IMG/VR virus record: IMGVR_UViG_3300042892_001069
DNA: 39,800 nt
Reading direction: 5' to 3' (one strand)
Origin: a virus
Lineage: Duplodnaviria > Heunggongvirae > Uroviricota > Caudoviricetes
Numbering within the stretch: position 1 is the stretch's first letter; each line of letters begins with the position of its first letter. The position numbers and the translations under genes are program-made. The notes under the pieces were generated by a model. It made no database searches. It saw nothing but the letters and a program-made list of their open reading frames with translations, and had not been told where the DNA came from. Positions 3,596-19,292 of this stretch are shown in pieces.

Positions 3596-3600
3596 ATGAT

Positions 3601-3690: not shown

Positions 3691-3695
3691 TAATT

Positions 3696-3772: not shown

Positions 3773-3791
3773 GATGTATTACTTACCATAT

Positions 3792-3910: not shown

Positions 3911-3917
3911 ATTTATA

Positions 3918-3992
3918 TGGAGACCCGTAGGAGAATCGAACTCCTCTTGCCAGGATGAAAACCTAGTGTCCTAACCGATAGACGAACGGGTC
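3918..3992 (-). tRNA. tRNA-Glu(TTC)
   Basis: Loop TT-TTC-AT, CCA. Confidence 0.93.
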
Positions 3993-4047
3993 AAATTGTC
4001 TTTTAAATTTTTAAGGAGCAGTGCTAGTGTTTGCTAGCTAAGTGTTA

Positions 4048-4076
4048 ATTATATAGCCTATGTGTCACCCTGTCAA
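4048..4076 (-). promoter_or_regulatory. sigma70 consensus promoter for a tRNA sub-cluster
   Basis: TTGACA-17 nt-TATAAT followed by a CTAGC hairpin. Confidence 0.85.
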
Positions 4077-4121
4077 CGTCTAAATGGACATTTGTGAAAA
4101 TAAAACATAATAAATAACATC

Positions 4122-5960: not shown

Positions 5961-6379
5961 GGCAATAAACTAATTGCGTCCTCAAATGGTACGTCTGACG
6001 GAATCTTAATAGCAAAAAAAAGTGATAGTGTTGCGGCCGGTGATAATTTTTGACGTTCTTTCCCGTTAATTGCAATAGGTGTGTCAATAAGAAAAGTCTC
6101 ACCGTCTTCAAATTCAATTGAAATATTGTTAGTGATAGGGAATATAATTAAACCATTGTTATTAGGTTTAGCGTGCATTATTTCTGCTGTGACTAATTTA
6201 GATAGTCCGTATTCTTCTGAATTTAGCGTTCTACTAAAAATATCCATACAAGGCAGTGACTCAGTACTATACCCAACTGCTGACAAATATTGTTGAATAC
6301 TACCTTGTTTTTCAGAGATGTTAAACAACGATAATAGTTTTAATCTATCGTACTCTGTATTGAATTTTTTGTATTTCAT
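5957..6379 (-). CDS. Hypothetical protein (possibly degenerate cupin fold)
   Basis: ORF coupled to the downstream oxygenase (ATGA overlap); LIIFPI...IAING strands. Confidence 0.5.
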   Translation of the reverse strand: MKYKKFNTEYDRLKLLSLFNISEKQGSIQQYLSAVGYSTESLPCMDIFSRTLNSEEYGLSKLVTAEIMHAKPNNNGLIIFPITNNISIEFEDGETFLIDTPIAINGKERQKLSPAATLSLFFAIKIPSDVPFEDAISLLP

Positions 6380-6396
6380 TATAATCTATCCTAATA

Positions 6397-6484
6397 TGGA
6401 GCGGCCGGGGGATTCGAACCTCCGTAGGCTATATAGCCACCCGGTTTACGGCCGGGCACGTTTGGCCACTCTGTCACGAACCGC
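6397..6484 (-). tRNA. Atypical tRNA-Tyr(GTA)
   Basis: CCCGG-CCGTAAA-CCGGG arm (C33), long variable arm, irregular acceptor/T junction, CCA. Confidence 0.65.
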
Positions 6485-7130
6485 GTACTATATTTAGTAT
6501 CTTTTCAGCTACTATTATGTTTCCTTCTTCAGTAGTAAGATTTACAAAAAACGGATTTTTTGCTGGGTATTTTTCAAACACATCCATAATATCATAATCT
6601 ACTGTTCCTGATTTAAATGTAAACCAACTTGGTACATTGTTTTGTCTAGGAAGAATGTGTAATGTTTTTATGCGTTTAAACGCAAGATATTGATCTATTT
6701 GTAGCAATGCGCCGTAATACCTATTTAGGGTTAAGTCTGGGTCATAAAAATATTGTCGATACGTGTTAACTGCGTTAAAAAAGTTTTCATTAGTATTAAA
6801 GACTTTTTTAAACAACGGCTGATTAGTTGCTGTAAATTCTGTATCTAGATGATCGTTTCTAAAAATGTCCTCAGCTCTTTTTGCTCTAAATGAGTTAGTG
6901 TCAATGTCTCTATCGCATCCAGGTAAGAATAAAAAACGTGGCAAGCAATGAAATACTATTGCTAAATCTACATTATGTGTTTTTTTTAATTCGTAAAGTA
7001 TACGTTCTTCACTACCTTGTTTAACTCCTTGATTAACTGCTGTACCGTTTAATCTATCAGCAACAATATCAATAAAACTGGCAGGCCCTCGATAGGCGCA
7101 GTTACTATGTCCATAAAATCCTATTCGCAT
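6474..7130 (-). CDS. SGNH/GDSL-like hypothetical protein
   Basis: N-terminal IGFYGHSN block I-like motif, NQGVKQGS block II-like motif. Confidence 0.5.
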   Translation of the reverse strand: MRIGFYGHSNCAYRGPASFIDIVADRLNGTAVNQGVKQGSEERILYELKKTHNVDLAIVFHCLPRFLFLPGCDRDIDTNSFRAKRAEDIFRNDHLDTEFTATNQPLFKKVFNTNENFFNAVNTYRQYFYDPDLTLNRYYGALLQIDQYLAFKRIKTLHILPRQNNVPSWFTFKSGTVDYDIMDVFEKYPAKNPFFVNLTTEEGNIIVAEKILNIVRGS

Positions 7131-7825
7131 AATTTAGTAAAGATGCTTATGCCTAGTTTGCTTTTAATTCCCTGTTGCCTAAAGTCACTGGCACAATGTA
7201 ATCTCACGCTGTCAAAAATAATAGCCTGTGTAGGAATCCAATCAATGGCAGAGTGTAGGCTTAACCCCTGCAACCAATGAGGCTTTAGGTGTGTAAAATA
7301 CTGATGCTCATCTATAAACGGCTGATCAACTATATTGTCTACATCGGTGTAGTCGTAAACTTGTTTGTTGTAGTATGTAGGGATGTCTTTACCATTGTTA
7401 AAGAACTTAGCCGGACCATGAAAATAAAATTGATCAAAGAAACATAATTTAGGAATAGCAGTGCCATCAATATGCAAGGGTATAGTTATTGCCTTATACA
7501 CATCAGGCAATTCAAACGTATCGTCATTATGTATAATATGCGGAGTTTCTGTATAAAAGAAAAAAGCCGCAGTAATTTCAAAGGCGCCTAACGTTAATTT
7601 TAATTTTTCTATTATGCTAGCAATTACCGGATCTGTAATATAATTTTTTAAATCTAATGTTACTGGTCCGGTATTTTTATAAACTGCTGGAGAATTTATA
7701 TTATTGTGTTCGTTTGAGTAAAGCGAAACCAAATGATCGACATCCTCTTTGCTTAAGAAGTGTTCTATAGCATATGGATTGCTAACTCGAGATTTAATTT
7801 TGGCAATACTATCTTTATTCCGCAT
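7121..7825 (-). CDS. 2OG-Fe(II) oxygenase-like protein
   Basis: IHNDD...AITIPL...IIFDSVRLHCAS. Confidence 0.7.
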   Translation of the reverse strand: MRNKDSIAKIKSRVSNPYAIEHFLSKEDVDHLVSLYSNEHNNINSPAVYKNTGPVTLDLKNYITDPVIASIIEKLKLTLGAFEITAAFFFYTETPHIIHNDDTFELPDVYKAITIPLHIDGTAIPKLCFFDQFYFHGPAKFFNNGKDIPTYYNKQVYDYTDVDNIVDQPFIDEHQYFTHLKPHWLQGLSLHSAIDWIPTQAIIFDSVRLHCASDFRQQGIKSKLGISIFTKLCE

Positions 7826-7851
7826 GGTGTATTTATTAGGTTAAATACACC

Positions 7852-8424
7852 ATGACATATTTTAAAAGAGTAAAATTAGATAATATACCATATGCGGAAA
7901 TATTAAAAAATCTTACAATTCCAAGCGGCGCAGGGCAAGTTAGCCCATTACCGCATGATGTTAAATTTAAACTAGCAGAGCTTTTAAAAATAGATCTAGA
8001 TCAGTGCGTCCAATCTAGAATAATGATAGTATACTTTCCACCCCTCGGAAGTGTTAATATACACTCTGATAAACCAGTAGAAGATTTACCTGAAGGAAAA
8101 TTGGATCAATGTATAATAGTTCCAATAGACAATTTCCAAGATGTTGAATGGACTTGGTACGAAGTATTAGATTATTCAAAAATATATCATTACGGTCAAA
8201 AAGAAAATTGGAAAACAGTGCCAATGGTGCCAGTCACTGCTACAAAAGCCGTAGAAAAAATTAAATGTAACAGCGCATTTATCGCTGACATTGGCACATG
8301 GCACTCATTAAAAAATTTTAGTAATAAGCCCGCTGTTGCTCTTAGCATTAGACTGATGCCCTGGAGTTGGGAGGATTTTAAAACTAGCAGTTTGCCTCCA
8401 ATGAAGGGTGTAACATTGGGATGA
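7852..8424 (+). CDS. 2OG-Fe(II) oxygenase-like protein
   Basis: IHSDK...IIVPI...WHSL..LSIR. Confidence 0.7.
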   Translation: MTYFKRVKLDNIPYAEILKNLTIPSGAGQVSPLPHDVKFKLAELLKIDLDQCVQSRIMIVYFPPLGSVNIHSDKPVEDLPEGKLDQCIIVPIDNFQDVEWTWYEVLDYSKIYHYGQKENWKTVPMVPVTATKAVEKIKCNSAFIADIGTWHSLKNFSNKPAVALSIRLMPWSWEDFKTSSLPPMKGVTLG

Positions 8425-8954
8425 ACTATTTCAAGTACTTAGATTTAAATTGGCAACCTAGTGCTGTTAAACTAAAACAATACATCTACGATAACGAGCA
8501 AGATCTTTTAACAGGATTTCATTCATCATGGAAGGCGGTTGACACTAATGATGTTATCAGCAAAGTACCTGAACTTATAGATATGCTGTTGCCACTAGGT
8601 GTTACTATACGGTATGTTGCATTTTTTATCAGTAATTATCCAGTTGGTACAATTCATATTGACGCGGATACTTATTCAAAAGTACGGATTAATATTCCAA
8701 TTATTAATTGCGAGCACACTGAAACTAGATTCTATACTACATCAGCACCACTAATTCGAGTATTACAACAAAATGGCATTCCACTATTTAAAATTGATCC
8801 TACTAAGTGTACTCACGTTGATCAATTTTATTTAACACAAGCTGTATTATTTAGAAATACTGAACCTCATCAAGTAATAAGCAATAATTTAGTACACCCA
8901 CGAATATCTTGTACTATAGGACTCAACGAAGATTTATCTTATTTGTTAGAGTAG
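8421..8954 (+). CDS. 2OG-Fe(II) oxygenase-like protein
   Basis: IHIDAD...RINIPIIN...PHQV...RIS. Confidence 0.72.
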   Translation: MNYFKYLDLNWQPSAVKLKQYIYDNEQDLLTGFHSSWKAVDTNDVISKVPELIDMLLPLGVTIRYVAFFISNYPVGTIHIDADTYSKVRINIPIINCEHTETRFYTTSAPLIRVLQQNGIPLFKIDPTKCTHVDQFYLTQAVLFRNTEPHQVISNNLVHPRISCTIGLNEDLSYLLE

Positions 8955-9476
8955 CTCGGGGCTAAATCTAATACTTAACATACATCGAGGTAATTCCGAC
9001 ATATTATGTACAGTGTGCGGCTTATCGACTCTAACTATCATAGGAGACCCAATAAACACTTTATCAATCACTGTTGGTTCACTGTTCCACTTTAAATGAA
9101 TAGATGGGCGGCCAATTGGATTATTATATAGTTTTTGTTCATAGTCGCCCTCAAACCACATCATACAGCCATCTTGACAATTGTTAATTGGAATATTCAA
9201 TGCTGAAATAAAGTCTGGAATATTTGCGCGATACCCGTCTATGTGAACACCGCGAGTATGATTGCCAACTTGGAAAAATATAATAGCATCTCTAATAGTG
9301 TGGTGAAGCTTGCCAGTCGCATTAACAACGTCAGCACCCAATTGTTCTACAAGCCATGGGTAGTCATCTTTTGGCACACTCATAGCGTGAAGTGTGCCAG
9401 CGTTTGAAATTAAATGTGTATATCTATCAGCAATATTTGTCCAGTTGCTTATAGTTATTGGTCGATAATATTCCAT
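8946..9476 (-). CDS. 2OG-Fe(II) oxygenase-like protein
   Basis: VHIDG...LNIPINN...PHTV...RCMLSIR. Confidence 0.72.
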   Translation of the reverse strand: MEYYRPITISNWTNIADRYTHLISNAGTLHAMSVPKDDYPWLVEQLGADVVNATGKLHHTIRDAIIFFQVGNHTRGVHIDGYRANIPDFISALNIPINNCQDGCMMWFEGDYEQKLYNNPIGRPSIHLKWNSEPTVIDKVFIGSPMIVRVDKPHTVHNMSELPRCMLSIRFSPELL

Positions 9477-9490
9477 ACTAATATTTATAT

Positions 9491-9567
9491 TGGCCGGCCC
9501 TGAGAGGTTCGAACTCCCAACTTCCAGTTTCGAAGACTGGCACTCTATCCAATTGAGCTAAGGGCCG
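9491..9567 (-). tRNA. tRNA-Arg(TCG)
   Basis: Loop CT-TCG-AA, CCA. Confidence 0.93.
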
Positions 9568-10198
9568 TAATTTCATCTACTGACTTATTAAATGCTACAG
9601 TAATTAGTAGTCTTGGGCCTGGACTCAAATTAATACTATGAACACAATCTGTTTTAACAAATGCGCTCGGCGAAGATACGTTTGCTTCTACAATCGGAGC
9701 AGTTCCTAGAAAGTCAATTCTACTTTGTATAGTATCACCAGGGACTACCTTTGTTTTGTATTCAAATCCTGTTTGATTATTCTTTCTAGATATATCACTT
9801 AGTGCCGGATGACTATCAGTTATATCTGGCCACCAGTGCATTGTGTCTAACGGATTCCCAAGTATTAGGACATTAAATCTACTTAACACATTATTTCGAA
9901 CACCTTCTTTGCTTGTAATAAAATCAATGTGTGGGTTACACATGGCACTAGTTGCTTGGTTACTTATGTGGGCTGATATACCAAAATATGATGTACTACA
10001 ATTATACTGTGCTAGGAAATCAATCAGCTCTTGGCCAGCATTACTGCGGTGCCATTCTTGCTGTATTTGAACTGTACCTTGAGTACTATCTAAATTATGA
10101 TTAAAATATCTATCAAATCGACTAGCATATCGATCTAATATCCAGTCTTTTGCTTGTTGAGAAAAGTCAAAAGAAGTTCGATGGAAGAATGTAGTCAT
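9545..10198 (-). CDS. 2OG-Fe(II) oxygenase-like protein (start revised to MTTFF)
   Basis: PHIDF...RFNVLI...CVHSI..RLLITV; the upstream ATG in the ORF track lies inside a tRNA. Confidence 0.65.
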   Translation of the reverse strand: MTTFFHRTSFDFSQQAKDWILDRYASRFDRYFNHNLDSTQGTVQIQQEWHRSNAGQELIDFLAQYNCSTSYFGISAHISNQATSAMCNPHIDFITSKEGVRNNVLSRFNVLILGNPLDTMHWWPDITDSHPALSDISRKNNQTGFEYKTKVVPGDTIQSRIDFLGTAPIVEANVSSPSAFVKTDCVHSINLSPGPRLLITVAFNKSVDEITALSSIG

Positions 10199-10208
10199 CC
10201 TGTATTTA

Positions 10209-10283
10209 TGGCACCGCAAGTTGGATTCGAACCAACATTGGACACTTTAGAAGAGTGTTGCCTATCCCTTAGACTATTGCGGT
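10209..10283 (-). tRNA. tRNA-Arg(TCT)
   Basis: Loop CT-TCT-AA, CCA. Confidence 0.93.
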
Positions 10284-10284
10284 A

Positions 10285-10358
10285 TGGTGCTCGAGTAAGG
10301 AATCGAACCTTAATTACTAACGTACCAAGTTAGTGTACTGCCATTGTACTACAAGAGC
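10285..10358 (-). tRNA. tRNA-Thr(GGT)
   Basis: Loop TT-GGT-AC, two acceptor mismatches, CCA. Confidence 0.85.
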
Positions 10359-10361
10359 ATA

Positions 10362-10967
10362 TTAAAAACCGCTAGTTAATAACAAGTGTAGCCTTGCAGT
10401 ATCTGATTGATTACAAAACGTATGTTCTATGCGGCTAGGATCTAAGTACCATATACGACCATCTGCTGGCATGTGTAGTTTAACAATCTCGGGGTGTCTT
10501 TTTAATAACCAAAAACATTGAGTATTAGTTATTAACGGAATATGATACCGATTTGGTGTGTGAAAATCTTTGTGAAAGTTATAATTTTGATTTGATCCCA
10601 ACCATATTAGCTGTGCCCTACCTTGAAACTTTTTAGTATGTTGATTGTATATTTTATGAACAAGTTTTCCTATGTACAAATCTTGGCTCTCAGATAGATG
10701 TTCTGTAAAGTCTGATTCATTAACATCTTGTTCAATGACCGACGCATGTTTTCCAGTATATTTGTTCCAACGATCATCTCCAACTAACTCGGGAAGATGC
10801 GTTAAATTTATGGCAAATCCAAACTTTGTTTTGCATCTTTCATTTATATCGTCTAATGTTAATCCTAACCGATTTAATAGCGTGTTAACACTATCGAGTA
10901 ATAGTAACATATCTACTCTATCACTTAACGGATAACAAAATGGTAGGAGTGTATCAACTTCTTTCAT
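10362..10967 (-). CDS. Asp/Asn beta-hydroxylase-like 2OG-Fe(II) oxygenase
   Basis: FHKD...RYHIPLITN...EHTFCN...RLHL. Confidence 0.78.
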   Translation of the reverse strand: MKEVDTLLPFCYPLSDRVDMLLLLDSVNTLLNRLGLTLDDINERCKTKFGFAINLTHLPELVGDDRWNKYTGKHASVIEQDVNESDFTEHLSESQDLYIGKLVHKIYNQHTKKFQGRAQLIWLGSNQNYNFHKDFHTPNRYHIPLITNTQCFWLLKRHPEIVKLHMPADGRIWYLDPSRIEHTFCNQSDTARLHLLLTSGF

Positions 10968-10986
10968 CTTCTATTTATAGTGGCAT

Positions 10987-11067
10987 TGGTACCCCAGGCG
11001 GGATTTGAACCCGCATTTAAATTTCTCCTTTTGAGAGAGACGACTTTGCCAATTTGTCTACTGGGGC
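10987..11067 (-). tRNA. tRNA-Leu(CAA)
   Basis: Loop CT-CAA-AA, 9-nt variable region, CCA. Confidence 0.9.
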
Positions 11068-11073
11068 ATTGTT

Positions 11074-11149
11074 TGGTGCTACCTCCAGGGATCGAACCTG
11101 GTTCACCGGTGCTTCAAACCGGCGCTATGACCACATCAGCTAAAGTAGC
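11074..11149 (-). tRNA. tRNA-Phe(GAA)
   Basis: Loop TT-GAA-GC, CCA. Confidence 0.9.
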
Positions 11150-11200
11150 AAAATTAGTACAAGTTGTTCGCCGCACAACTTGTAAAGCGGGGGTCTGTTC

Positions 11201-11674
11201 TTATACGTACCAAATCTCTTTAAAGCCTTCTTCTAGAGTTGGCTCTTCCCATCCTGCGATCATACCGTCAATGACATTCTTTGGAATGTTCTTGCCCGGC
11301 CGGCCACTTAATCTTACATCTAACTCGTCTCGATTTGGTGTACGGAATACAACAGCAATATGCTCGTACTCGGGTAACGCATTAAACTTTCGAGCACGAC
11401 TCATTACCGTAGTACTGGTCTGATCCCAAACAATATCTAACTGGAATGCGGCCGCCATATTAACATTCACCATCATCTGCTTGACAGCAGTGGGCATGTA
11501 TTCTTCAAAGACTTCGCTGTATGTTTTACCTTGATCCTTCGCATATCCTTCAACATGCTGATCAGTACTAACATACTTGTGATCTTTTTTGTCCTCACCT
11601 AGCCAGTCCTGATTTTTATACCAAGTACTTTTACCTGCACCTGGAACTCCAATTAATTGATAACACTTAGGCAT
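11201..11674 (-). CDS. P-loop polynucleotide kinase-like protein (AAA_33)
   Basis: LIGVPGAGKSTW Walker A, VSTD, IVWDQT; start revised to MPKCY. Confidence 0.8.
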   Translation of the reverse strand: MPKCYQLIGVPGAGKSTWYKNQDWLGEDKKDHKYVSTDQHVEGYAKDQGKTYSEVFEEYMPTAVKQMMVNVNMAAAFQLDIVWDQTSTTVMSRARKFNALPEYEHIAVVFRTPNRDELDVRLSGRPGKNIPKNVIDGMIAGWEEPTLEEGFKEIWYV

Positions 11675-11846
11675 TAGATAATCTCTCAATCTCGTTGGCT
11701 GCTTCATCTAATAAGTCTGCTATACGATCGGCAGCACCTTCTTGTACACTTTTACGGGAACCGATCTGTCTACGGATCTCTGCCCGCTTACGCAAACGGA
11801 ATACTAGGCTTTGTTCCGCTACAGGCAAATGGCTTTCATCTTTCAT
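11667..11846 (-). CDS. Small hypothetical protein (59 aa, MKDESHLP...)
   Basis: Read by hand; fills the gap and overlaps both neighbours. Confidence 0.65.
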   Translation of the reverse strand: MKDESHLPVAEQSLVFRLRKRAEIRRQIGSRKSVQEGAADRIADLLDEAANEIERLSNA

Positions 11847-12406
11847 AAGTCGCCTACCTTGTCATGATGACTCTTAATTTCTCCCCGCAAGGCTCTTCGA
11901 ATAGCATCTTCCATTTCTAACACAATCCAACCAGTTGCGTCAATGCCTACATCCAACGCACGATACTTTTCTAAACTACTGGTATTGCCGTGTAAGTGTC
12001 CATGAAAGTGAACACTGCCCCTATGCATTTGATCCCATTCAGCAATTGGATAGTGTAACATTACTACCTTAGTGCCGTTGTAATTGATATCCAAGTACTT
12101 GTGTACTTCGGAAAAACAACTACGAAAGCTAGGATCGTTCAATGCTTTCTTATCGTGGTTGCCTTCAATTAAAATCTTAGTACCATTTAAACGACGCATA
12201 ATTTGTGTTGCCTTCTGCGCATTACAAAATGCTACATCGCCTAAGATGTAGACTAAATCGCCAGGCTCAACAATCTCGTTCCATTCGATGATCATTGCTT
12301 CTGTCATGTAGTCTACATCATTTTTAAATCGTGCTCTTGTCACCGGGCAGAATTTCATGATGTTAGTATGCCCGAAGTGTAAGTCACTTGTGACATACGT
12401 CTTCAT
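11843..12406 (-). CDS. Calcineurin-like metallophosphoesterase
   Basis: SDLHFGH, LGDV, GNHD, HYP, HGHLH motifs. Confidence 0.92.
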   Translation of the reverse strand: MKTYVTSDLHFGHTNIMKFCPVTRARFKNDVDYMTEAMIIEWNEIVEPGDLVYILGDVAFCNAQKATQIMRRLNGTKILIEGNHDKKALNDPSFRSCFSEVHKYLDINYNGTKVVMLHYPIAEWDQMHRGSVHFHGHLHGNTSSLEKYRALDVGIDATGWIVLEMEDAIRRALRGEIKSHHDKVGDL

Positions 12407-12418
12407 AAACTTCTCCTT

Positions 12419-12616
12419 TTAAAAGTGGAACTCACGTACCCACTCGAATTGTGTTTCTCTGGCTTTTACCCATTTGAATTGAGCCTGCTTGCGTACAGGC
12501 TTTTCAAAGTCAATACAGATAAAAATCCATCCCTTGTCCTCTGAGAACATGACTGTTTCAGCAACTCGGACGATCTCTACGATTTTATCTTTCATCTTAG
12601 CTACTGTTACGGTCAT
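12419..12616 (-). CDS. Hypothetical protein
   Basis: GGAGAA SD before MTVTVAK. Confidence 0.6.
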   Translation of the reverse strand: MTVTVAKMKDKIVEIVRVAETVMFSEDKGWIFICIDFEKPVRKQAQFKWVKARETQFEWVREFHF

Positions 12617-12626
12617 TACGTTCTCC

Positions 12627-12794
12627 TTAATGTACAGGCTCCTTTGAGTCAACTTCGCACTCAACGATCCATTTGTTAAATTGTGTAAACTTGTTTACTT
12701 CAACACCTAGTCCAACTGCTTCGTTTACAAAATGTTGTAACAGCGCATTGTACAATTCGTCGGGCATTGTTTCTTTACTAAATTTAATCTTCAT
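12627..12794 (-). CDS. Small hypothetical protein (55 aa, MKIKFSKE...)
   Basis: Read by hand; TAATG overlap with the upstream ORF. Confidence 0.6.
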   Translation of the reverse strand: MKIKFSKETMPDELYNALLQHFVNEAVGLGVEVNKFTQFNKWIVECEVDSKEPVH

Positions 12795-12967
12795 TAGTAA
12801 GTCTCCTTGACAATGTCAAACTCTGCGGCGGGCCATTTAGCTTTGAACTCATCTGTTTTAACATAGTCATTATAAGATTTAGCTTCGAAGAACACCTTGT
12901 GGAACACTGTTTTAAATGTGCCTTTCGGGTGAATCGTTAAGTAAACAGATTTTGCTTTGCCTGCCAT
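12794..12967 (-). CDS. Hypothetical protein
   Basis: AAGGA SD before MAGKAK; consensus promoter upstream. Confidence 0.65.
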   Translation of the reverse strand: MAGKAKSVYLTIHPKGTFKTVFHKVFFEAKSYNDYVKTDEFKAKWPAAEFDIVKETY

Positions 12968-12996
12968 AGTATATCCTTGCTTGTTAGTATACAAGT

Positions 12997-13025
12997 ATTA
13001 TACACTAAACAGGCAAGGCTGTCAA
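12997..13025 (-). promoter_or_regulatory. sigma70 consensus promoter
   Basis: TTGACA-17 nt-TATAAT. Confidence 0.85.
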
Positions 13026-13052
13026 TCAACTGATCTAAAAGTGCGCCAGTCG

Positions 13053-13490
13053 TCAATATTGGGCTTTTTCATCAGCATCGTAAGTCCAACCCAAATGTTT
13101 CATCATACGATGCTTAACTAAAAGATTTGGACTACGAAACCGCTCAGTATCACTGAAGCCCATCATGACTCCTAACTCACAAACTGCGCCCGAACGACAA
13201 ATGCCAGCATAGCAATGAACAACCACATTCATGCGATTTTCCAATGCGTGTTGTAGCAAACGAACGAGCTCAGCGGCCTGCTCATGACTACAACGCATGG
13301 CTTCCTCTAGGGCAAAGTCTTTTTCTTCGATGTCCAAGAACTCAAAGTTGTGACGCTCTTTGAACTGATGCTTGGCTTCAGGTCGCCAGCCGGCTGGATC
13401 CACAATGCTGATCAACATACTGTTTGGGCCAGCATCGTGATGGAACCCTGTTGGGATATCAGCGGCTGCTACATTTTCAATCCACGGCAT
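13053..13490 (-). CDS. Cys-based (dual-specificity/PTP-like) phosphatase
   Basis: VVVHCYAGICRS = HCX5R P-loop. Confidence 0.85.
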   Translation of the reverse strand: MPWIENVAAADIPTGFHHDAGPNSMLISIVDPAGWRPEAKHQFKERHNFEFLDIEEKDFALEEAMRCSHEQAAELVRLLQHALENRMNVVVHCYAGICRSGAVCELGVMMGFSDTERFRSPNLLVKHRMMKHLGWTYDADEKAQY

Positions 13491-13508
13491 AATATTCTCC
13501 TTAAAATT

Positions 13509-13582
13509 TGGGGTGAAAGGGGGAATCGAACCCTCGTCAACTGTTTCACAGACAGCTATGTTACCACTACACTACTAACACC
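13509..13582 (-). tRNA. tRNA-His(GTG)
   Basis: Loop CT-GTG-AA, encoded G-1:C73, CCA. Confidence 0.88.
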
Positions 13583-13588
13583 ATAGAT

Positions 13589-13663
13589 TGGTACCGCCGG
13601 AAGGAATCGAACCTCCATTTCTACGTTCGTAGCGTAGGGTATACTCCATTATACGACAGCGAT
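13589..13663 (-). tRNA. tRNA-Arg(ACG)
   Basis: Loop CT-ACG-AA, CCA. Confidence 0.92.
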
Positions 13664-13668
13664 AAATT

Positions 13669-13742
13669 TGGCAGGCGCATTAGGGATCGAACCTAAACTA
13701 ACAGAGTCAAAGTCTGTTGTGCTACCATTACACAATGCGCCA
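13669..13742 (-). tRNA. tRNA-Gln(TTG)
   Basis: Loop CT-TTG-AC, G73, CCA. Confidence 0.92.
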
Positions 13743-13748
13743 ACAATA

Positions 13749-13816
13749 AAACAGGATAGCATTTTTTGGCTTTTTTTCAAGAAAAGATTTTTAATGTTTG
13801 CTGTTGCTATCCTAAA
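13749..13816 (-). ncRNA. Repeated structured RNA with a Ser(UGA) anticodon-like hairpin
   Basis: AGGATAGCA/TGCTATCCT stem, ACAGCAA, inner CTTTT-CTTGAAA-AAAAG. Confidence 0.7.
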
Positions 13817-13817
13817 C

Positions 13818-13893
13818 TGGAGCGGGTGATCGGAGTCGAACCGACGACAATCACGTTGGCAACGTGGCGCTCTACCAGCTGAGCTACACCCGC
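13818..13893 (-). tRNA. tRNA-Gly(GCC)
   Basis: Loop TT-GCC-AA, CCA. Confidence 0.95.
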
Positions 13894-13899
13894 ATATAA

Positions 13900-14149
13900 A
13901 ATATTGGAAAAGAACATTGAGAGTTTTGGTCCACAATCAAGTGAAACTTGGCTACCCAGTACATACAGTACTGCTCTACTTGTCTAGCAAACGTGGAGTG
14001 CCACTTGCGTTCGAGGATCGCCCAGACTGTATGTCCTGATCCACCACCCGGCTGAAGTGAGATTTATAACCTCCGGCTAATAACGGCTTCCGACCTTTTA
14101 TAACCCTTCTTTCGAAACTTCCGAACACCTTATGTTCTTTACCAATATT
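13900..14149 (-). ncRNA. Candidate ~250-nt structured ncRNA
   Basis: 18-bp terminal inverted repeat with one mismatch; GC-rich interior with CATACAG/CTGTATG pairing; no credible ORF. Confidence 0.55.
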
Positions 14150-14692
14150 TTATTTTGTTCCAATGATCATGTATCTTGTAAATGACCATGTGGGATATTT
14201 AAATTCTAAACTGCCTTCGTATACTACATCTGTAATATTATACAGTTCTTTAAACTCTGTCAAACTTTTTGAATACACTATATGATCATCATGTGGCATG
14301 TTATTACCTTGTAGTACAACTCGTGTACCGGGCGCAATGGCATCAAACCATGCTAGACTTTCAAAATGCTCAGTACTAGTGTTAATAACAAGGTCTGGCG
14401 CACCCGCAATAGTTTGATTACAATCTACAGTGTACGCTTTGAACTGCCAATTCTTTGAAACCCAATTTTCATTGATCATATCGGCGATAGATTCGCATGT
14501 TGGGTCCATATCGTAGCTTTCTATTTTTGCTACTTTAAATTGTTCACGGCTTAATAACAAGAAAGCTAGCACTCCGTACCAACCGCCATATACGTGTGTC
14601 AGTTCACTAGTCCATCCTAATTGTTCAAGCTCACGACACACCCATAACTTGCTGTCGATTTGTCCACTTGTAAAAGCATCTGTATTAAACAT
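14150..14692 (-). CDS. Class I SAM-dependent methyltransferase-like protein
   Basis: VYGGWYG motif I-like, YDMD, DLVINTSTEH; start revised to MFNTD. Confidence 0.65.
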   Translation of the reverse strand: MFNTDAFTSGQIDSKLWVCRELEQLGWTSELTHVYGGWYGVLAFLLLSREQFKVAKIESYDMDPTCESIADMINENWVSKNWQFKAYTVDCNQTIAGAPDLVINTSTEHFESLAWFDAIAPGTRVVLQGNNMPHDDHIVYSKSLTEFKELYNITDVVYEGSLEFKYPTWSFTRYMIIGTK

Positions 14693-14712
14693 ACAATACT
14701 TATTTTTTATTA

Positions 14713-14787
14713 TGGTGGTAACGGTGAGATTCGAACTCACACCGGGCGCCGTATGAAGGCGGTGCACAACCATTATGCTACGTTACC
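14713..14787 (-). tRNA. tRNA-Met/Ile2(CAT)
   Basis: Loop TT-CAT-AC, paired G1:C72 (elongator type), CCA. Confidence 0.88.
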
Positions 14788-14790
14788 ATA

Positions 14791-15016
14791 AGGATAACAA
14801 CTAAGTAGTTCCACCACATTATTGGAACCATTTAACTGATTTAACAAGTCCGGACAGTAGTCGGTACGTTACTTGAGATTCATCCAGTACAGTCCCCTTT
14901 ACGGACACTACCCTTCCGAGTAGTTGGGAGTTGAACCCATTAACCTTCTACTATACAGTACCTTCGAAGAATACTGAATAGCGTGACTTCACTTGCTAAC
15001 ACTCAATTGTTATTCT
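14791..15016 (-). ncRNA. Candidate ~225-nt structured ncRNA with T-loop motif
   Basis: AGAATAACAA/TTGTTATCCT terminal stem; GGG-TTCAACT-CCC T-loop hairpin; several further hairpins. Confidence 0.55.
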
Positions 15017-15018
15017 TA

Positions 15019-15093
15019 TGGTAGGGGCACAGGGACTCGAACCCTGATAGATCGGTTAAAAGCCGACTATTCTAGCCTTTGAATTATACCCCC
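15019..15093 (-). tRNA. tRNA-Lys(TTT)
   Basis: Loop CT-TTT-AA, CCA. Confidence 0.93.
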
Positions 15094-15096
15094 ATA

Positions 15097-15171
15097 TGGT
15101 CCACGCTCTGAGAATCGAACTCAGTTAGTCCGGTTAAGAGCCGGGTACTTCGCCACTAAAGTTTAGCGTGG
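15097..15171 (-). tRNA. tRNA-Lys(CTT)
   Basis: Loop CT-CTT-AA, CCA. Confidence 0.9.
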
Positions 15172-15232
15172 ATGGATCGTAAATATTTTCTTTTACGTGC
15201 CATCCAGGACCATACGGGGGTCAAAGATGACA

Positions 15233-15253
15233 CTAACGTTTAGCACGTTTCAT
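15233..15253 (-). CDS. Mini-ORF MKRAKR (possible regulatory uORF)
   Basis: GGAGAA SD, then ATG AAA CGT GCT AAA CGT TAG. Confidence 0.4.
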   Translation of the reverse strand: MKRAKR

Positions 15254-15254
15254 G

Positions 15255-15383
15255 CTATTCTCCTTTGTTGATATTTTTCTTTTGGGCTTGGCGTTCTGAC
15301 TTCCAGAATACTCGTTTCCAATCTTTCAAATGCTTCCACCATTGCGGACTGCGTGTTAGAATACCTTGTTGCTTGTGTGCCAT
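15255..15383 (-). CDS. Small basic protein (42 aa, MAHKQQG...)
   Basis: Read by hand; AAGGAA SD. Confidence 0.65.
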   Translation of the reverse strand: MAHKQQGILTRSPQWWKHLKDWKRVFWKSERQAQKKNINKGE

Positions 15384-15398
15384 TGGATTTCCTTTTAT

Positions 15399-15461
15399 AA
15401 AACAGGATGCTTATTTTTCAATTAAAAGTTGAATTTTTGAATTTGCTGTTCGCATCCTAAA
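15399..15461 (-). ncRNA. Repeated structured RNA with a Lys(UUU) anticodon-like hairpin
   Basis: AGGATGC/GCATCCT stem, ACAGCAA, inner TTCAA-CTTTTAA-TTGAA. Confidence 0.7.
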
Positions 15462-15463
15462 AT

Positions 15464-15537
15464 TGGTGCCCCATGACAGAATCGAACTGCCGTTAACTGA
15501 TTACAAAACAGTTGTTCTACCATTAAACTAAAAGGGC
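15464..15537 (-). tRNA. tRNA-Thr(TGT), second copy
   Basis: Loop TT-TGT-AA with U31:U39 mismatch, CCA. Confidence 0.88.
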
Positions 15538-15543
15538 TAAATT

Positions 15544-15618
15544 TGGCGCCGCTGATGGGAATCGAACCCACCTAAGTCTCGCAGACAACGAGTTACCCTC
15601 CCAGAGAGCTACAACGGC
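15544..15618 (-). tRNA. tRNA-Asp(GTC) with U37
   Basis: Loop TT-GTC-TG, G73, CCA. Confidence 0.85.
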
Positions 15619-15681
15619 ATATTGAATCATGAGCTTGTAGACTAAACTACAATTTACCGGTTTCTAGACGAACTCATAAAC

Positions 15682-15757
15682 TTGGTACTGTCGACGGGTA
15701 TCGATCCCGCTTCTCCACCTTGAAAGGGTAGCGTCCTAGCCACTAGACGACGACAGT
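15682..15757 (-). tRNA. tRNA-Glu(TTC), second copy
   Basis: Loop CT-TTC-AA, T-loop ATCGATA, CCA. Confidence 0.9.
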
Positions 15758-15761
15758 GTAT

Positions 15762-15827
15762 AAAACAGGATAGCATCTTTTTTCCATTAAAAGTAGAATT
15801 TTTGAGTTTGCTGTTGCTATCCTAAAC
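15762..15827 (-). ncRNA. Repeated structured RNA with a Lys(UUU) anticodon-like hairpin
   Basis: AGGATAGCA/TGCTATCCT stem, ACAGCAA, inner TTCTA-CTTTTAA-TGGAA. Confidence 0.7.
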
Positions 15828-15919
15828 TGGTACCAGCGTAGGGAATCGAACCCTATCAAGAACGCTAATCTGGCGCTAAAAGGTATATAAGACCTCTCTG
15901 ACTACCAAGTCTCGCTGGC
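15828..15919 (-). tRNA. tRNA with UAU anticodon (nominal Ile), long variable arm and 4-nt D-loop
   Basis: GAGGT-CTTATAT-ACCTT arm; GACT-TGGT-AGTC D-arm; ~24-nt variable arm; CCA. Confidence 0.8.
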
Positions 15920-15924
15920 ATGTA

Positions 15925-15998
15925 TGGTTCCTCCAACAAGAATCGAACTTGTAATGACCGGTTATCAGCCGATTGTTATACCATTTAACTACAGAGGA
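15925..15998 (-). tRNA. tRNA-Ile(GAT)
   Basis: Loop CT-GAT-AA, CCA. Confidence 0.93.
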
Positions 15999-16002
15999 AT
16001 AT

Positions 16003-16076
16003 TGGTTGCGGGTCCAGGATTTGAACCTGGGATGCTCCTGGCTTATGAGACCGGAGTGGTGGCCGCCCTACCCGCG
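16003..16076 (-). tRNA. Initiator-like tRNA-Met(CAT) with degenerate D-arm
   Basis: C1:A72 mismatch, loop CT-CAT-AA, TTCAAAT T-loop. Confidence 0.75.
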
Positions 16077-16082
16077 ATTGAT

Positions 16083-16158
16083 TGGCTCCACAGCCTGGGC
16101 TCGAACCAGGGACCAAATGATTAACAGTCATCTACTCTACCAACTGAGCTACTGCGGA
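16083..16158 (-). tRNA. tRNA-Asn(GTT)
   Basis: Loop CT-GTT-AA, CCA. Confidence 0.95.
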
Positions 16159-16165
16159 ATAAAAT

Positions 16166-16240
16166 TGGCGGTCTGTGGGGGAATCGAACCCCCGTAAGTG
16201 GATAGACAATCCACAGTAATAACCTCTATACGAACAGACC
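16166..16240 (-). tRNA. tRNA-Asp(GTC), second copy, U37
   Basis: Loop TT-GTC-TA, G73, CCA. Confidence 0.88.
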
Positions 16241-16247: not shown

Positions 16248-16333
16248 TGGTGGAGTATCCTGGGATCGAACCAGGCGTGCCATTACGACGGCGGATTTAC
16301 AGTCCACTGCATCACCATTGATGCTTCTACTCC
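16248..16333 (-). tRNA. tRNA-Tyr(GTA)
   Basis: Loop CT-GTA-AA, long variable arm, CCA. Confidence 0.92.
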
Positions 16334-16341: not shown

Positions 16342-16370
16342 ATTATAACACTCTCCCTCTATGATGTCAA
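16342..16370 (-). promoter_or_regulatory. sigma70 consensus promoter directly before tRNA-Tyr
   Basis: TTGACA-17 nt-TATAAT embedded in an inverted repeat. Confidence 0.8.
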
Positions 16371-16608
16371 CCGCGTCGTAGGCGGAGGTGGAAAGTGTTT
16401 ATTAAAGCATACTCGGCTTGTGACCTTATCCCCTAAACATTCTAGTTTCGGAATATGCTTTAATAACTAGTATTTTCTTCCCACAAGAGGGAATGCCATC
16501 CACTAGTCCGCCCGTTCGCTACGTGTTTTAAGTGCGTAGCAGAGTCCTCGTTACTCTATATTCACACTTTGCGTCAACGACTGCCTTGGCAATCTCAGCG
16601 TTAAAAAC

Positions 16609-16637
16609 AAAAAACCCCAGGGTTTTAATCCTAGGGT
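16609..16637 (-). terminator. Intrinsic terminator of the leader (attenuator)
   Basis: ACCCTAGG-8 nt-CCTGGGGT stem followed by TTTTTGTTTTT. Confidence 0.8.
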
Positions 16638-16669
16638 CCTTGAAGTTTCGAAATGTATTAAGTTGTTAC

Positions 16670-16810
16670 TTAACCATCCCAGCCCTCCCGGACCCTGGTA
16701 ATCTCTGGTGTGCGATCATATGATAGACTATTAATCGCTAACCAGCAAGAGGCTATAACGCCTGCCTGTTTTGGCATCGGATTAAAATGATGTCTGTTAA
16801 ATGATTGCAT
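16670..16810 (-). CDS. 46-aa leader peptide MQSFNRHHFNPMPKQAGVIASCWLAINSLSYDRTPEITRVREGWDG
   Basis: Hand translation; GAGAA SD-like site; lies between promoter and terminator; contains an antiterminator strand. Confidence 0.65.
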   Translation of the reverse strand: MQSFNRHHFNPMPKQAGVIASCWLAINSLSYDRTPEITRVREGWDG

Positions 16811-16867
16811 TTTGGTTCTCGTTTACTCTCTTAAAATTTACTAGCGGAATGCTAGTGTCTTGTGTTA

Positions 16868-16896
16868 ATTATAGTGTCTTTCAACACCTCTGTCAA
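16868..16896 (-). promoter_or_regulatory. sigma70 consensus promoter of the leader
   Basis: TTGACA-17 nt-TATAAT. Confidence 0.88.
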
Positions 16897-16949: not shown

Positions 16950-16978
16950 ATTATAAGAGTATTTATATCTCTTGTCAA
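16950..16978 (-). promoter_or_regulatory. Second sigma70 consensus promoter with embedded T4-late-like TATAAATA
   Basis: TTGACA-AGAGATATAAATACTCT-TATAAT. Confidence 0.85.
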
Positions 16979-18123: not shown

Positions 18124-18225
18124 AGTGTCTCCTTGTGTGTTTGTGCTATTATATAGCCTATTAAACTCCAAGGTCAATAGTTTTTCACTATAATTATTTC
18201 TATTAGGCTTATAGCTTTGTTTAAT

Positions 18226-18250
18226 AAAGAAACCCGCCGGAGCGGGTTCT
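18226..18250 (-). terminator. Intrinsic terminator after the tmRNA coding piece
   Basis: AGAACCCGC-TCCG-GCGGGTTTCTTT. Confidence 0.8.
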
Positions 18251-18600
18251 GCTATTTTGGATGACAAGGTATAACTACCTCGCAAGTGCTGTTTCTTAGG
18301 CAGCTAGTGCAAATGCGTCATCGTTTAAGGCGACGTCGACTTGCATGTACTTGAATGTATTTGCGTTTGCATTTACGATTTTTGTATTTTACGTGACCCC
18401 ACGTGTTGAGTCGTTATCCTATCTCACCCTGTCGAAACCATGGCAGGCCCATTTAAACACACTTTGGTTTATTAAGAGTTATAGCTATGCTAAAGAGCTC
18501 CTGGGATACCAAACCTGATCTTTTTACAGATTCAAGTATGCTTAGGTGGACCTGGCGGGAGTCGAACCCGCGTCCAGAACGCCTTACTTTACAACTTTGT
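18226..18600 (-). ncRNA. ssrA: Circularly permuted (two-piece) tmRNA
   Basis: Acceptor piece (GCGGG-TTCGACT-CCCGC-CAGGTCC-ACC, ~18600-18544) precedes the coding piece starting GGGCCTG (18450); G3:U70; tag ANANTFKYMQVDVALNDDAFALAA* at 18370-18296. Confidence 0.88.
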
Positions 18601-18624
18601 CCATTCAAGGACTACAACAATTCC

Positions 18625-18693
18625 TTACATAAAAACATGTATCAAAACAAATATAACAATTAAAACTGTTACAATGAATTGATACGCTTTCAT
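18625..18693 (-). CDS. 22-aa hydrophobic peptide MKAYQFIVTVLIVIFVLIHVFM
   Basis: Read by hand; starts 1 nt after the cspA stop. Confidence 0.45.
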   Translation of the reverse strand: MKAYQFIVTVLIVIFVLIHVFM

Positions 18694-18694: not shown

Positions 18695-18898
18695 TTACTC
18701 TGGATGAATATTACTAGCTTGCTTACCCTTCATTCCCTGTACTACATCAAACGTTACTGCTTGATTTTCTTGTAGAACTTTAAAACCTGGAGTCTGTATT
18801 GCTGAGTAGTGAGCAAATAAATCCTCACCGCCGTTGTCTGGAGTAATAAATCCAAAACCTTTGGTTTCATTAAACCATTTTACTTTACCTGTTGCCAT
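18695..18898 (-). CDS. cspA: Cold-shock protein
   Basis: [17 protein letters not shown]...LFAHYS RNP1/RNP2. Confidence 0.97.
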
Positions 18899-19010
18899 TA
18901 TACTAATTTACCTTGTTAAAACACTATTATAGTGCCAGTTATTTATCAACGCAATCATTTTGGCAAATAATACTATAAATAACTATGTAGTTAAATCCGG
19001 GAGCGAATCG

Positions 19011-19292
19011 ATGGGTGATATTTTCAAAATTATTGGAGATCTAGGATTTCCAGTTGCAGCGGCACTAGCGGGCGGGTATTTTGTATACCTAACAATCAAA
19101 TTACTTTTGCAGGGCGTTTTAAGTTCAGTTAAAGGTATGGCTGGCATTATTACAGCACTTGATAACCGTGTTAAAACTATGAATCACGATGTTATACGTA
19201 TTGATACTATTGTATCCAATGCGCTAGGGCTACGTCCTGACGCAGACCGTATTGCACGAGCAGACGGTAAAAATGACGCTAGGAGAGATTAA
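19011..19292 (+). CDS. Small membrane protein (GFPV type)
   Basis: N-terminal TM segment; TATAAATA upstream; start revised to MGDIF. Confidence 0.7.
   Translation: MGDIFKIIGDLGFPVAAALAGGYFVYLTIKLLLQGVLSSVKGMAGIITALDNRVKTMNHDVIRIDTIVSNALGLRPDADRIARADGKNDARRD

Follow-up and report, generated by a model that had tools for sequence, protein, structure and literature searches.

A minus-strand leader at the head of a tRNA array in an uncultured giant tailed phage from a lake is likely a transcription attenuator operated by the ribosome, and its short ORF is a pangram of the genetic code. The phage probably transcribes more tRNA whenever ribosomes slow at any codon. The leader lies in a 39,800-nt IMG/VR contig (IMGVR_UViG_3300042892_001069, here called the window), and the unit recurs at the head of tRNA arrays in more than 100 contigs of uncultured freshwater giant phages. 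An attenuator had been proposed in the initial annotation of the window, and the comparative evidence largely supports this interpretation; the function remains inferred, in the absence of experiments and transcript-end data.

Genomic setting of the leader unit

The unit consists of two perfect sigma-70 promoters, followed by a 46-codon ORF (16810–16670) and an intrinsic terminator (16641–16610); these and all features below are on the minus strand. Both promoters matched TTGACA-17-TATAAT in 12 of 12 positions (distal, 16950–16978; proximal, 16868–16896), and transcription is inferred to start near 16861, from the proximal one. The relatives carried two to three tandem near-consensus promoters, ~25, 105–135 and 210–225 nt upstream of the leader, and the proximal one scored 11–12/12 in 51 of 60 relatives. 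The leader RNA was predicted by folding to have a 5′ stem-loop (ACUAGC-AUUCC-GCUAGU, 16840–16856). Its relatives had a hairpin in the same place, built from different stem sequences; MAFFT misaligned the arms and the pair counts were unusable. The promoter, ORF, terminator and complementarity reported in the initial annotation were all recovered on the minus strand, at their coordinates. The unit exceeds chance expectation: all 20 amino acids are found in a random 46–50mer with p ~0.02–0.035, the leader transcript folds with z = −5.5 against shuffles, and more than 100 contigs conserve the whole unit.

We found 39 homologues of the small ORF in metagenomes, 80 IMG/VR loci by the peptide pattern, and more than 80 additional loci by searching with only the terminator motif. 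Wherever a locus was long enough to tell, a same-strand tRNA array started 200–660 nt past the terminator (once ~1,040 nt), and the protein genes flanking the unit varied between loci. By this comparison of loci, the unit is linked to tRNA arrays. One contig from a metagenome-assembled genome points, weakly, to Polynucleobacter as a possible host. Neither the region nor the ORF had a relative in the GenBank phage collection, where there were only a tRNA-Tyr match and chance tblastn matches. Relatives of the neighboring hydroxylase gene were 40–58% identical, their downstream sequence was not syntenic, and no orthologous region was found there. Searches against Rfam (E ≤ 1 over 6 kb, or E ≤ 10 over 541 nt) gave no T-box or leader family.

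The first gene of the array in the window is a tRNA-Tyr(GUA) at 16251–16333 (Rfam tRNA, 33.4 bits; anticodon loop CUGUAAA), which ARAGORN missed and which is 86.5% identical to a phage tRNA-Tyr. It is followed by 32 further tRNAs interleaved with genes (442–16240), for all amino acids except Cys; the rest of the contig had no more tRNAs. The read-through region between terminator and tRNAs (16372–16596) is a conserved structured RNA (alignment, z = −3.7), present at variable distance in most relatives and without a family in Rfam. Contigs from RNA libraries of four freshwater studies covered the leader, this downstream element and tRNA-Tyr, with DNA carry-over not excluded. Their summed depth was about zero upstream of 16902, with relatives pooled at 88% likeness. 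Such contigs cannot show transcript ends or levels, and support no conclusion on termination or read-through.

A third perfect promoter (12/12, with a TG extension) stands at 16342–16370, directly before the first tRNA, so that in the window the switch can do no more than raise expression that is already constitutive. The initial annotation had raised an independent promoter as a caveat, which holds for this locus and 16 relatives: a promoter of 11–12/12 between terminator and tRNAs was found in 17/60 loci. In the remaining 43/60 relatives the strongest sigma-70-like site in the interval from terminator to first tRNA reached 7–9 of 12, the level of shuffled sequences. With no promoter after the terminator, the switch would therefore gate the array in these phages.

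The promoter in front of the tRNAs here, together with the compactness of the promoter-ORF-terminator unit, the conserved frame and the RNA-library contigs covering the leader, would also suit a standalone early gene that encodes a micro-protein of ~46 amino acids, or a dual-function small RNA. Adjacency to the tRNAs would then be synteny, and the pairing described below would stabilize the mRNA 3′ end. We regard this as improbable. The array has no other promoter in 43/60 relatives, no Pfam domain was recorded for any homologue of the small ORF, and several properties of the RNA and of the peptide, given in the next two sections, are at odds with a gene product of its own.

Alternative helices of the leader RNA

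The antiterminator is formed by region A (AGGGUCC, 16690–16696), which lies in codons 39–41 of the ORF, and region A′ (GGACCCU, 16633–16639), which overlaps the 5′ arm of the terminator by ACCCU. A longer helix had been proposed at first, in which CCAGGGUCC (16698–16690) is complementary to GGACCCU(A)GG (16639–16630). Only its 7-bp core, AGGGUCC/GGACCCU, was conserved in relatives, and we dropped the CC/GG extension across the bulged A, which was not. The core could pair in 63/63 aligned relatives, showed compensatory changes, and competes with a terminator that itself covaries. At the pair formed by alignment columns 233 and 302 we counted 46 AU, 12 GC and 5 GU, the change from A-U to G-C occurring in 12 sequences from several clades. 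One sequence (L046) also had a C-to-U change in A that was matched by G-to-A in A′, as read off the alignment. The A:A′ helix was otherwise mostly invariant, and the evidence of covariation comes from a single pair that is well sampled plus a second one in just one sequence.

The interior of the antiterminator (16642–16689) holds, according to the alignment and the folds, an inner helix around a hairpin, B. This helix, missed in the initial annotation, has 4 bp between GAGG (16687–16684) and CUUC (16645–16642), and its columns (241–244 with 290–293) contained GC, GU and AU pairs. The 5′ arm of hairpin B contains the stop codon of the ORF (16672–16670). A local GUCC-GNRA-GGAC hairpin after region A was also considered and rejected, because at 67% pairing it did not outperform slid controls; the inner helix (GGAG/CUUC), which covaries, takes its place.

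The intrinsic terminator (16601–16641) is made of ACCCUAGG (16637–16630), the loop AUUAAAAC and CCUGGGGU (16621–16614), followed by U6-G-U5. Its stem of 8–12 bp before the U tract was 98.8% paired across the 63 relatives, on whose alignment pair counts and slid controls were computed. The arms were compensated in two sequences (L082, L083), and the pair formed by columns 302 and 319 was UG in 47, CG in 12 and UA in 4. Judged from this alignment, both helices are conserved and mutually exclusive. Region A′ excludes the terminator when paired to A instead of adding to it, which is not what a stabilized 3′ end of a micro-protein mRNA would require.

Upstream of A, the ORF contains a further hairpin, P1 (CUGGUUAGCGAU ... 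AUCGCACACCAG, 16705–16745), with 96.5% pairing in the outer stem and G-C to A-U changes among relatives in the inner stem. The invariant W, D-R and P-E residues of the leader peptide coincide with nucleotides of the P1 stem, and we attribute their invariance to the pairing of this hairpin, which also counts against a micro-protein. P1 does not pair with A, and neither a conserved pause site nor an anti-antiterminator was found. It is possibly a pause or spacer hairpin, a role that we only infer.

The stop codon followed the end of A after 14–18 nt in 97 of 106 cases and was in turn followed by A′ after 29 ± 3 nt. A ribosome has a footprint of roughly 30 nt, and both spacings are consistent with it.

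Frame and composition of the leader ORF

The leader ORF (16670–16810) has an ATG start, a conserved frame and 46 sense codons followed by TAA. Its 46 codons are of 35 distinct kinds and specify all 20 amino acids, the set being complete by codon 36. The conserved ATG is 51 nt after the inferred transcription start. It is preceded by a purine/A-rich region (GAGAG..GAGAA, 16811–16830), whose function in ribosome binding is inferred; the Shine-Dalgarno match is weak, the A/G-rich tract being present.

We initially read the leader as a structured non-coding RNA with a spurious ORF, and dropped this once the frame proved to be conserved and the all-20 property emerged. A small RNA, or an element resembling a riboswitch or T-box that binds a ligand, a tRNA or a protein, would account for the strong structure (z = −5.5), for nucleotide identities of 75–91% among relatives, equal to or above the peptide identities, and for the conserved third codon positions in P1 and around A. 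Such an untranslated RNA is nonetheless hardly tenable. Measured from the ATG, the end of P1 fell at six distances in the 63 relatives, 105–120 nt, all (63/63) multiples of three, whereas the non-coding spacer from A to A′ had 11 lengths with mod-3 counts of 30/25/8. Where the ATG was changed to TTG, a new ATG 6 nt upstream compensated for the loss. All 47 copies that were found via the terminator motif alone had an ATG ORF of at least 42 codons, ending 8–27 nt past A. A composition of all 20 amino acids would also be meaningless without translation, and there was no Rfam match, T-box included, at E ≤ 10.

Conservation of the ORF had been named as a check in the initial annotation, and we found lengths of 42–55 codons, in frame, across relatives. 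At the C-terminus, the last 8–10 residues of the peptide shift frame between clades, while the RNA stays conserved, and GGGUCC is decoded in two frames (as RVR or GS). The constraint on region A thus acts on the RNA, which does not fit a micro-protein. From these observations we infer that the ORF is translated; the evidence is indirect, without Ribo-seq or peptide data.

Amino-acid diversity was itself the conserved property. All 20 amino acids were present in 97 of the 106 distinct peptides (42–55 aa), 19 in eight and 18 in one. Shuffling within alignment columns gave all-20 peptides in 19 of 59 cases on average and in 30 at most, compared with 56 observed. Cys occurred in at least nine alignment columns, His in eight and Tyr in five, and peptides with zero copies were almost absent. 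The single Cys, His, Tyr and Lys residues shifted position among peptides and were almost never lost; in a micro-protein that folds or binds, these residues would not be free to roam over 5–9 positions with the full set retained. The property persisted in divergent peptides, with all 20 amino acids in 7/9 clusters of <40% identity and in 31/36 peptides less than 50% identical to that of the window. For the latter, 3.6/36 were expected when the positions differing from the window's peptide were resampled. Taken together, the alignments show the frame of the ORF and its all-20 composition to be under selection, as far as this can be read from related sequences.

The initial annotation had also seen a match between leader codons and the anticodons of the array. 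This proved uninformative, as it applied to 87% of the leader codons and to 84% of the codons in the long ORFs of the window. The window has no tRNA-Cys, and the leader still keeps a Cys codon. These results support sensing of all 20 amino acids, that is, of the general aminoacyl-tRNA supply, and not matching to the phage's own anticodons. The regulated product would be a tRNA array for 19–20 amino acids, downstream of a leader with all 20 in 97/106 peptides versus 2–3% by chance.

The all-20 set was complete before region A in 86/106 peptides. Glu, and sometimes Val, Gly or Asp, had their sole codons very close to A, and a stall at such codons might mask A instead of freeing it.

Switch polarity, proposed mechanism and known attenuators

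Thermodynamic folding agreed with the polarity given in the initial annotation, in which the free RNA adopts the antiterminator and masking of AGGGUCC leads to the terminator. The minimum free energy fold of the whole leader contained A:A′ in 57 of 60 members; once the 7 nt of A were barred from pairing, the terminator fold emerged in 60/60. The antiterminator fold was more stable by 5.8 ± 2.0 kcal/mol. These are equilibrium folds, which ignore co-transcriptional kinetics, and the polarity is an inference from them. A ribosome terminating at the stop codon would cover just the last 0–4 nt of A, so masking would lean partly on steric exclusion and on coverage of the inner helix, which is again an inference.

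The same elements could work with another polarity or read-out, such that a finished ORF opens the switch, or that ribosome occupancy sets the stability or processing of the leader or of the tRNA precursor. Region A is just outside or at the edge of the terminating ribosome and could be free while hairpin B melts, and our argument on polarity is one of equilibrium folding only. We consider these variants unlikely, without dismissing them. The naked RNA already prefers the antiterminator (57/60) and masking of A gives the terminator (60/60), so no ribosome would be needed to open the switch. Completion of the all-20 set upstream of A (86/106) is expected if stalls before A matter, and a conserved canonical intrinsic terminator points to control of termination and not to another read-out. 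The precedent of the whiB7 leader shares the polarity proposed here (PMC10274678).

In the attenuation mechanism that we propose, host RNA polymerase would start at the tandem consensus promoters and make a leader of ~250 nt. A ribosome would translate the 46-codon ORF, with codons for nearly all 20 amino acids upstream of region A. If unhindered, it would reach the stop codon 14–18 nt beyond A, cover the inner strand of the antiterminator and abut or overlap A; A′ would be left free, the terminator hairpin would form, and transcription would end at 16610–16601. If the ribosome were held at any earlier codon, or never loaded, A would pair with A′ (7 bp plus the 4-bp inner helix) and sequester the 5′ arm of the terminator, and the polymerase would read into the downstream RNA and the tRNA array. 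The synthesis of tRNA would thereby rise whenever any aminoacyl-tRNA ran short or translation in general faltered. As natural causes of stalling we infer starvation, host shut-off or tRNA-cleaving defenses. With moderate confidence, we take the leader for a dedicated feedback sensor of the whole aminoacyl-tRNA pool in giant freshwater phages, in which any decoding delay would increase transcription of the tRNA array.

The classical leaders (trpL, hisL, leuL, thrL, pheL and the multivalent ilvL) share with the phage leader a promoter, a short ORF, exclusive helices, regulated genes, and regulatory codons that fit the product being regulated. They differ in that their peptides, 14–32 aa long, contain runs of one to three amino acids, whereas the phage leader has every amino acid, usually once or a few times. 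In the classical systems the leading edge of the ribosome masks segment 2, and a 1:2 pause/anti-antiterminator causes the untranslated leader to terminate; in the phage leader no anti-antiterminator was found, and the untranslated state is predicted to favor read-through. The regulated products are tRNAs, unlike those of the amino-acid operons, and the Rfam leader families were not matched. T-box riboswitches likewise report tRNA charging through transcription attenuation and control genes for aminoacyl-tRNA supply. They bind one uncharged tRNA without translation, through a specifier codon and a T-box sequence, neither of which the phage leader has, and its frame is conserved; RF00230 gave no match (E ≤ 1 over 6 kb, E ≤ 10 over 541 nt).

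In attenuators of the ermCL type and in toiL, the leader of topAI, ribosome stalling in a short ORF remodels the downstream RNA and switches expression on. Such leaders sense drug-bound ribosomes at particular peptide motifs, and many act on translation initiation or Rho, not on an intrinsic terminator. Like the proposed phage switch they are general reporters of translation trouble, but no stress leader of a resistance gene is known to preserve a full set of amino acids or to control tRNAs.

The whiB7/wblC leaders of mycobacteria and other Actinobacteria resemble the phage leader in having a long uORF of mixed composition before an antiterminator/terminator pair. Read-through in the whiB7 attenuator is induced by starvation for many different amino acids, and one Trp codon is enough for sensing; losing the start codon also increases read-through, which means that the leader is open when untranslated (PMC10274678). 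The uORF of M. smegmatis encodes 19/20 amino acids, that of M. tuberculosis lacks several, and the family is enriched in Ala (PMC10274678). Composition is thus not kept complete in whiB7, whereas in the phage leader completeness itself is maintained by selection. The whiB7/wblC leaders are cellular and control a drug-tolerance transcription factor instead of tRNA genes. They work alike, but the phage leader is not a member of this group, as there was no sequence or Rfam relationship. Our literature search found no publication on a pangram leader switch.

Current ideas on the role of tRNA arrays in large phages include compensation for codon usage, continued translation during host degradation, and evasion of anticodon nucleases. 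If a built-in sensor turns the array on whenever decoding is in trouble, phage tRNA supply would be shown to follow demand, and the leader would give a simple, portable genetic handle on what stalls ribosomes during infection. If true, tRNA genes would for the first time be known to lie under a transcription attenuator, and a coding region to be selected for completeness of its amino-acid set, not for a sequence or a codon run. As a rare case of selection on completeness of composition, the leader ORF would offer a clean system for the single-codon sensitivity of attenuation. The ~250-nt module could act as a general reporter of aminoacyl-tRNA limitation.

Layout of the leader in the window and its relatives

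The window belongs to a 46.8-kb IMG/VR contig, which is only 13% complete according to CheckV and thus comes from a giant phage. All leader features and tRNAs were on the minus strand. Two perfect TTGACA-17-TATAAT promoters (16978-16950 and 16896-16868) preceded a 5' stem-loop (16856-16840), an ATG ORF (the leader ORF, 16810-16670) and an intrinsic terminator (16641-16601). The leader ORF had 46 sense codons, 35 of them distinct, and encoded all 20 amino acids. The proximal promoter, ORF and terminator, the codon counts, and the positions of CCAGGGUCC (16698-16690) and GGACCCUAGG (16639-16630) were all as described in the initial annotation. The leader transcript folded at -77.2 kcal/mol (z = -5.5 vs shuffles). 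Downstream of the terminator there were a structured stretch of ~230 nt (16596-16372), a third perfect promoter (16370-16342), tRNA-Tyr(GUA) as the first of the array (16333-16251), and 32 further tRNAs, down to position 442. The tRNA-Tyr has a long variable arm; it was missed by ARAGORN and found by Rfam only (33.4 bits), and had 86.5% identity with the tRNA-Tyr of Limnohabitans phage DC31. The tRNA region itself contained another perfect TTGACA-17-TATAAT promoter, the fourth (12997-13025, minus strand).

Upstream of the leader, the phage encoded a two-piece, circularly permuted tmRNA of betaproteobacterial type (18205-18644, minus strand), with a tag of 24 residues as predicted by ARAGORN. 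Between the two were genes for a rubrerythrin, a rubredoxin and an Asp/Asn-hydroxylase-like protein. Upstream of the tmRNA (18731-19012, minus strand), the cspA thermoregulator 5' UTR family of Rfam matched weakly and below threshold (34 bits vs a gathering score of 78).

No useful relative of this region came from the GenBank phage collection, and the neighboring hydroxylase gene was discarded as a route to orthologous regions, its relatives not being syntenic. Metagenome protein sets contained 39 small-ORF homologues of the 46-aa peptide (19 representatives), and their peptide alignment recovered 80 IMG/VR loci. The terminator motif alone, a query independent of the leader ORF, retrieved no fewer than 80 additional loci, along with a single contig from the bin of a Polynucleobacter MAG. 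The motif occurred once per contig, on contigs of up to 383 kb. A unit of 230 nt was alignable in full, with 73–91% nucleotide identity between loci, and the flanking protein genes varied from locus to locus. Two to three tandem near-consensus promoters were found upstream of the leader in the relatives. Wherever the locus was long enough to tell, a tRNA array on the same strand began 200–660 nt 3' of the terminator (~1,040 nt in one case).

The Polynucleobacter sp. MAG contig (JBBAKF010000113.1, 6.2 kb) was the sole match of the terminator motif in 185,579 species genomes. It carried a complete leader (5560-5935) with a 48-aa ORF containing all 20 amino acids. Either the contig is phage DNA placed in the wrong bin, or it hints weakly at the host; the betaproteobacterial tmRNA type of the window agrees with the second option.

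Reading frame and amino acid composition of the leader ORF

At first the sequences looked like a non-coding RNA, with third codon positions that hardly varied, indels in loops and C-termini that changed. This reading was overturned by three results. Six lengths separated the ATG from the end of P1, a hairpin inside the ORF (16705-16745): 105, 108, 111, 114, 117 and 120 nt, a multiple of three in 63/63 distinct sequences. The non-coding spacer between the two antiterminator strands came in 11 lengths, which fell 30/25/8 into the three mod-3 classes. In three relatives (L006–L008) the ATG was replaced by TTG, and a new in-frame ATG was present 6 nt upstream. Finally, all 47 new sequences from the terminator-motif search had an ATG ORF of at least 42 codons, spanning the upstream antiterminator strand and stopping 8–27 nt past it. 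These comparisons show a conserved frame, from which translation of the leader ORF is inferred.

The amino acid diversity was likewise conserved. All 20 amino acids were found in 97 of the 106 distinct peptides (42–55 aa), 19 in eight and 18 in one. For a random peptide of this length the chance is ~0.02–0.035, using the family or the window-proteome composition. Only 68 of 7,073 46-residue windows from the window's own proteins had all 20, and among its 60 small ORFs only the leader ORF did.

Inheritance alone does not account for this. Cys, His, Tyr and Trp were single-copy in 83–93% of the peptides and Lys in 73%. Cys used at least nine alignment columns, His eight, Tyr five and Lys at least eight. 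Zero-copy cases hardly occurred, and a small number of peptides were intermediates with two copies. When residues were shuffled within columns, a mean of 19/59 peptides were complete (maximum 30 in 5,000 trials) vs 56 observed. When positions matching the window's peptide were fixed and the remaining ones resampled, 21.7/105 complete peptides were expected and 96 observed; for peptides with <50% identity, the values were 3.6/36 and 31. Clustering at 40% identity gave nine groups, seven with all 20 amino acids and two with 19. The shuffle controls do not wholly remove relatedness, but because the singletons relocate and very divergent members exist, inheritance alone is, judging from these comparisons, an inadequate explanation. 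The peptide sequence itself gave no sign in the alignments of being an object of selection; the invariant residues W23, D32-R33 and P35-E36 fall on the P1 stems.

Antiterminator, terminator and proposed polarity

Terminator pairing was 98.8% in the alignment of 63 distinct leaders. One pair varied between U-G, C-G and U-A, and two loci (L082 and L083) had whole-arm compensation. Region A (AGGGUCC, codons 39–41) can pair with A' (GGACCCU), which overlaps the terminator 5' arm by five bases, in 63/63 leaders. The outer pair was A-U in 46, G-C in 12 (several clades) and G-U in five. In one relative (L046), GGGGUUC faced GAACCCU, a C-to-U change in A being offset by G-to-A in A', as read from the alignment. 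The frame reads GGGUCC as Arg-Val-Arg in one group of clades and as Gly-Ser in a second group; the sequence is therefore conserved as RNA. The antiterminator of the initial annotation thus stands in its AGGGUCC/GGACCCU core, with compensatory changes, while its CC/GG extension was not conserved. A 4-bp inner helix that had escaped notice, GGAG with CUUC or CUCC (pair types GC, GU and AU), extends the antiterminator.

We folded 60 leaders from their start to the U tract with ViennaRNA. The antiterminator was in the minimum-energy structure of 57/60, and the terminator appeared in 60/60 once the seven bases of A were barred from pairing. The antiterminator fold was more stable by 5.8 ± 2.0 kcal/mol. 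The stop codon lay 14–18 nt past the end of A in 97/106, regardless of frame, and 29 ± 3 nt upstream of A'. A ribosome covers ~15 nt on each side of its P site; therefore, during termination it would lie over the inner-helix strand and extend as far as the 3' end of A. With the ribosome stalled at the majority of earlier codons, A would stay free. The amino acid set was complete upstream of A in 86/106 peptides, by codon 36 in the window.

Smooth translation would thus lead to termination, and a stalled or absent ribosome to read-through, the polarity originally proposed. This is inferred from equilibrium folding and distances, without kinetic, pausing or real-footprint data. Overall, the observation is confirmed and its interpretation as an attenuator supported, with corrections. 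We consider the mechanism probable, the main uncertainty being that there are no experimental or transcript-end data at all.

Controlled genes, sensed signal and relation to known attenuators

A promoter matching 11–12 of 12 consensus positions was found between the terminator and the first tRNA in the window and in 16/60 relatives. The caveat that a separate promoter can drive the tRNAs therefore holds for the window, where the switch can do no more than supplement constitutive expression. For the remaining 43 relatives, the top-scoring sigma-70-like site in this interval reached 7–9/12, the level of shuffled sequences, and no promoters were recognizable other than the tandem ones upstream of the leader. 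This promoter arrangement implies that, in those relatives, at least the first block of the array is under the control of the switch, although transcript ends are lacking.

Read-through would cross the second conserved structured element (16596-16372, minus strand; z = -3.7) before the tRNAs. The element includes a 12-bp helix, UAUUAAAGCAUA / UAUGCUUUAAUA, has no Rfam family, and occurred in the majority of relatives, its distance from the terminator varying. Some relatives had an extra insert, with 140–220 nt between the terminator and the element (e.g., L010 3222-3398); in L010 and L011 it included a called 58-aa ORF. In RNA-library assemblies from four freshwater studies, contigs covered the leader, tRNA-Tyr and the element between them; these pool relatives and show neither ends nor levels, and are therefore not counted as evidence.

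The suggested match between leader codons and array anticodons proved uninformative, the window tRNAs reading 87% of leader codons vs 84% of codons in general. A Cys codon was retained, although neither the window nor the remainder of its contig has a tRNA-Cys. Both results point to sensing of amino acid or aminoacyl-tRNA supply in general, or of translation in general, rather than to a match with phage anticodons. The natural trigger remains open; starvation, host shut-off and tRNA-cleaving defense systems are candidates.

The leader shares its layout with leader-peptide attenuators. Unlike the trp/his type, it has no codon run and no identified anti-antiterminator, its untranslated state is open, as inferred from equilibrium folds, and its targets are tRNA genes. 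A T-box was ruled out, there being no Rfam match. Functionally, the whiB7 uORF attenuator comes closest, for which experiments showed that one codon is enough for an amino acid to be sensed and that loss of the start codon increases read-through; the whiB7 uORF is Ala-rich and its composition differs between species (PMC10274678). Full-text literature searches gave no account of attenuation of a phage tRNA array or of a leader with all 20 amino acids. We class the phage leader as a variant of leader-peptide attenuation that differs in selected trait and in target. It is of high interest because both, the complete amino acid set and the viral tRNA array, are unprecedented in the literature that could be searched.
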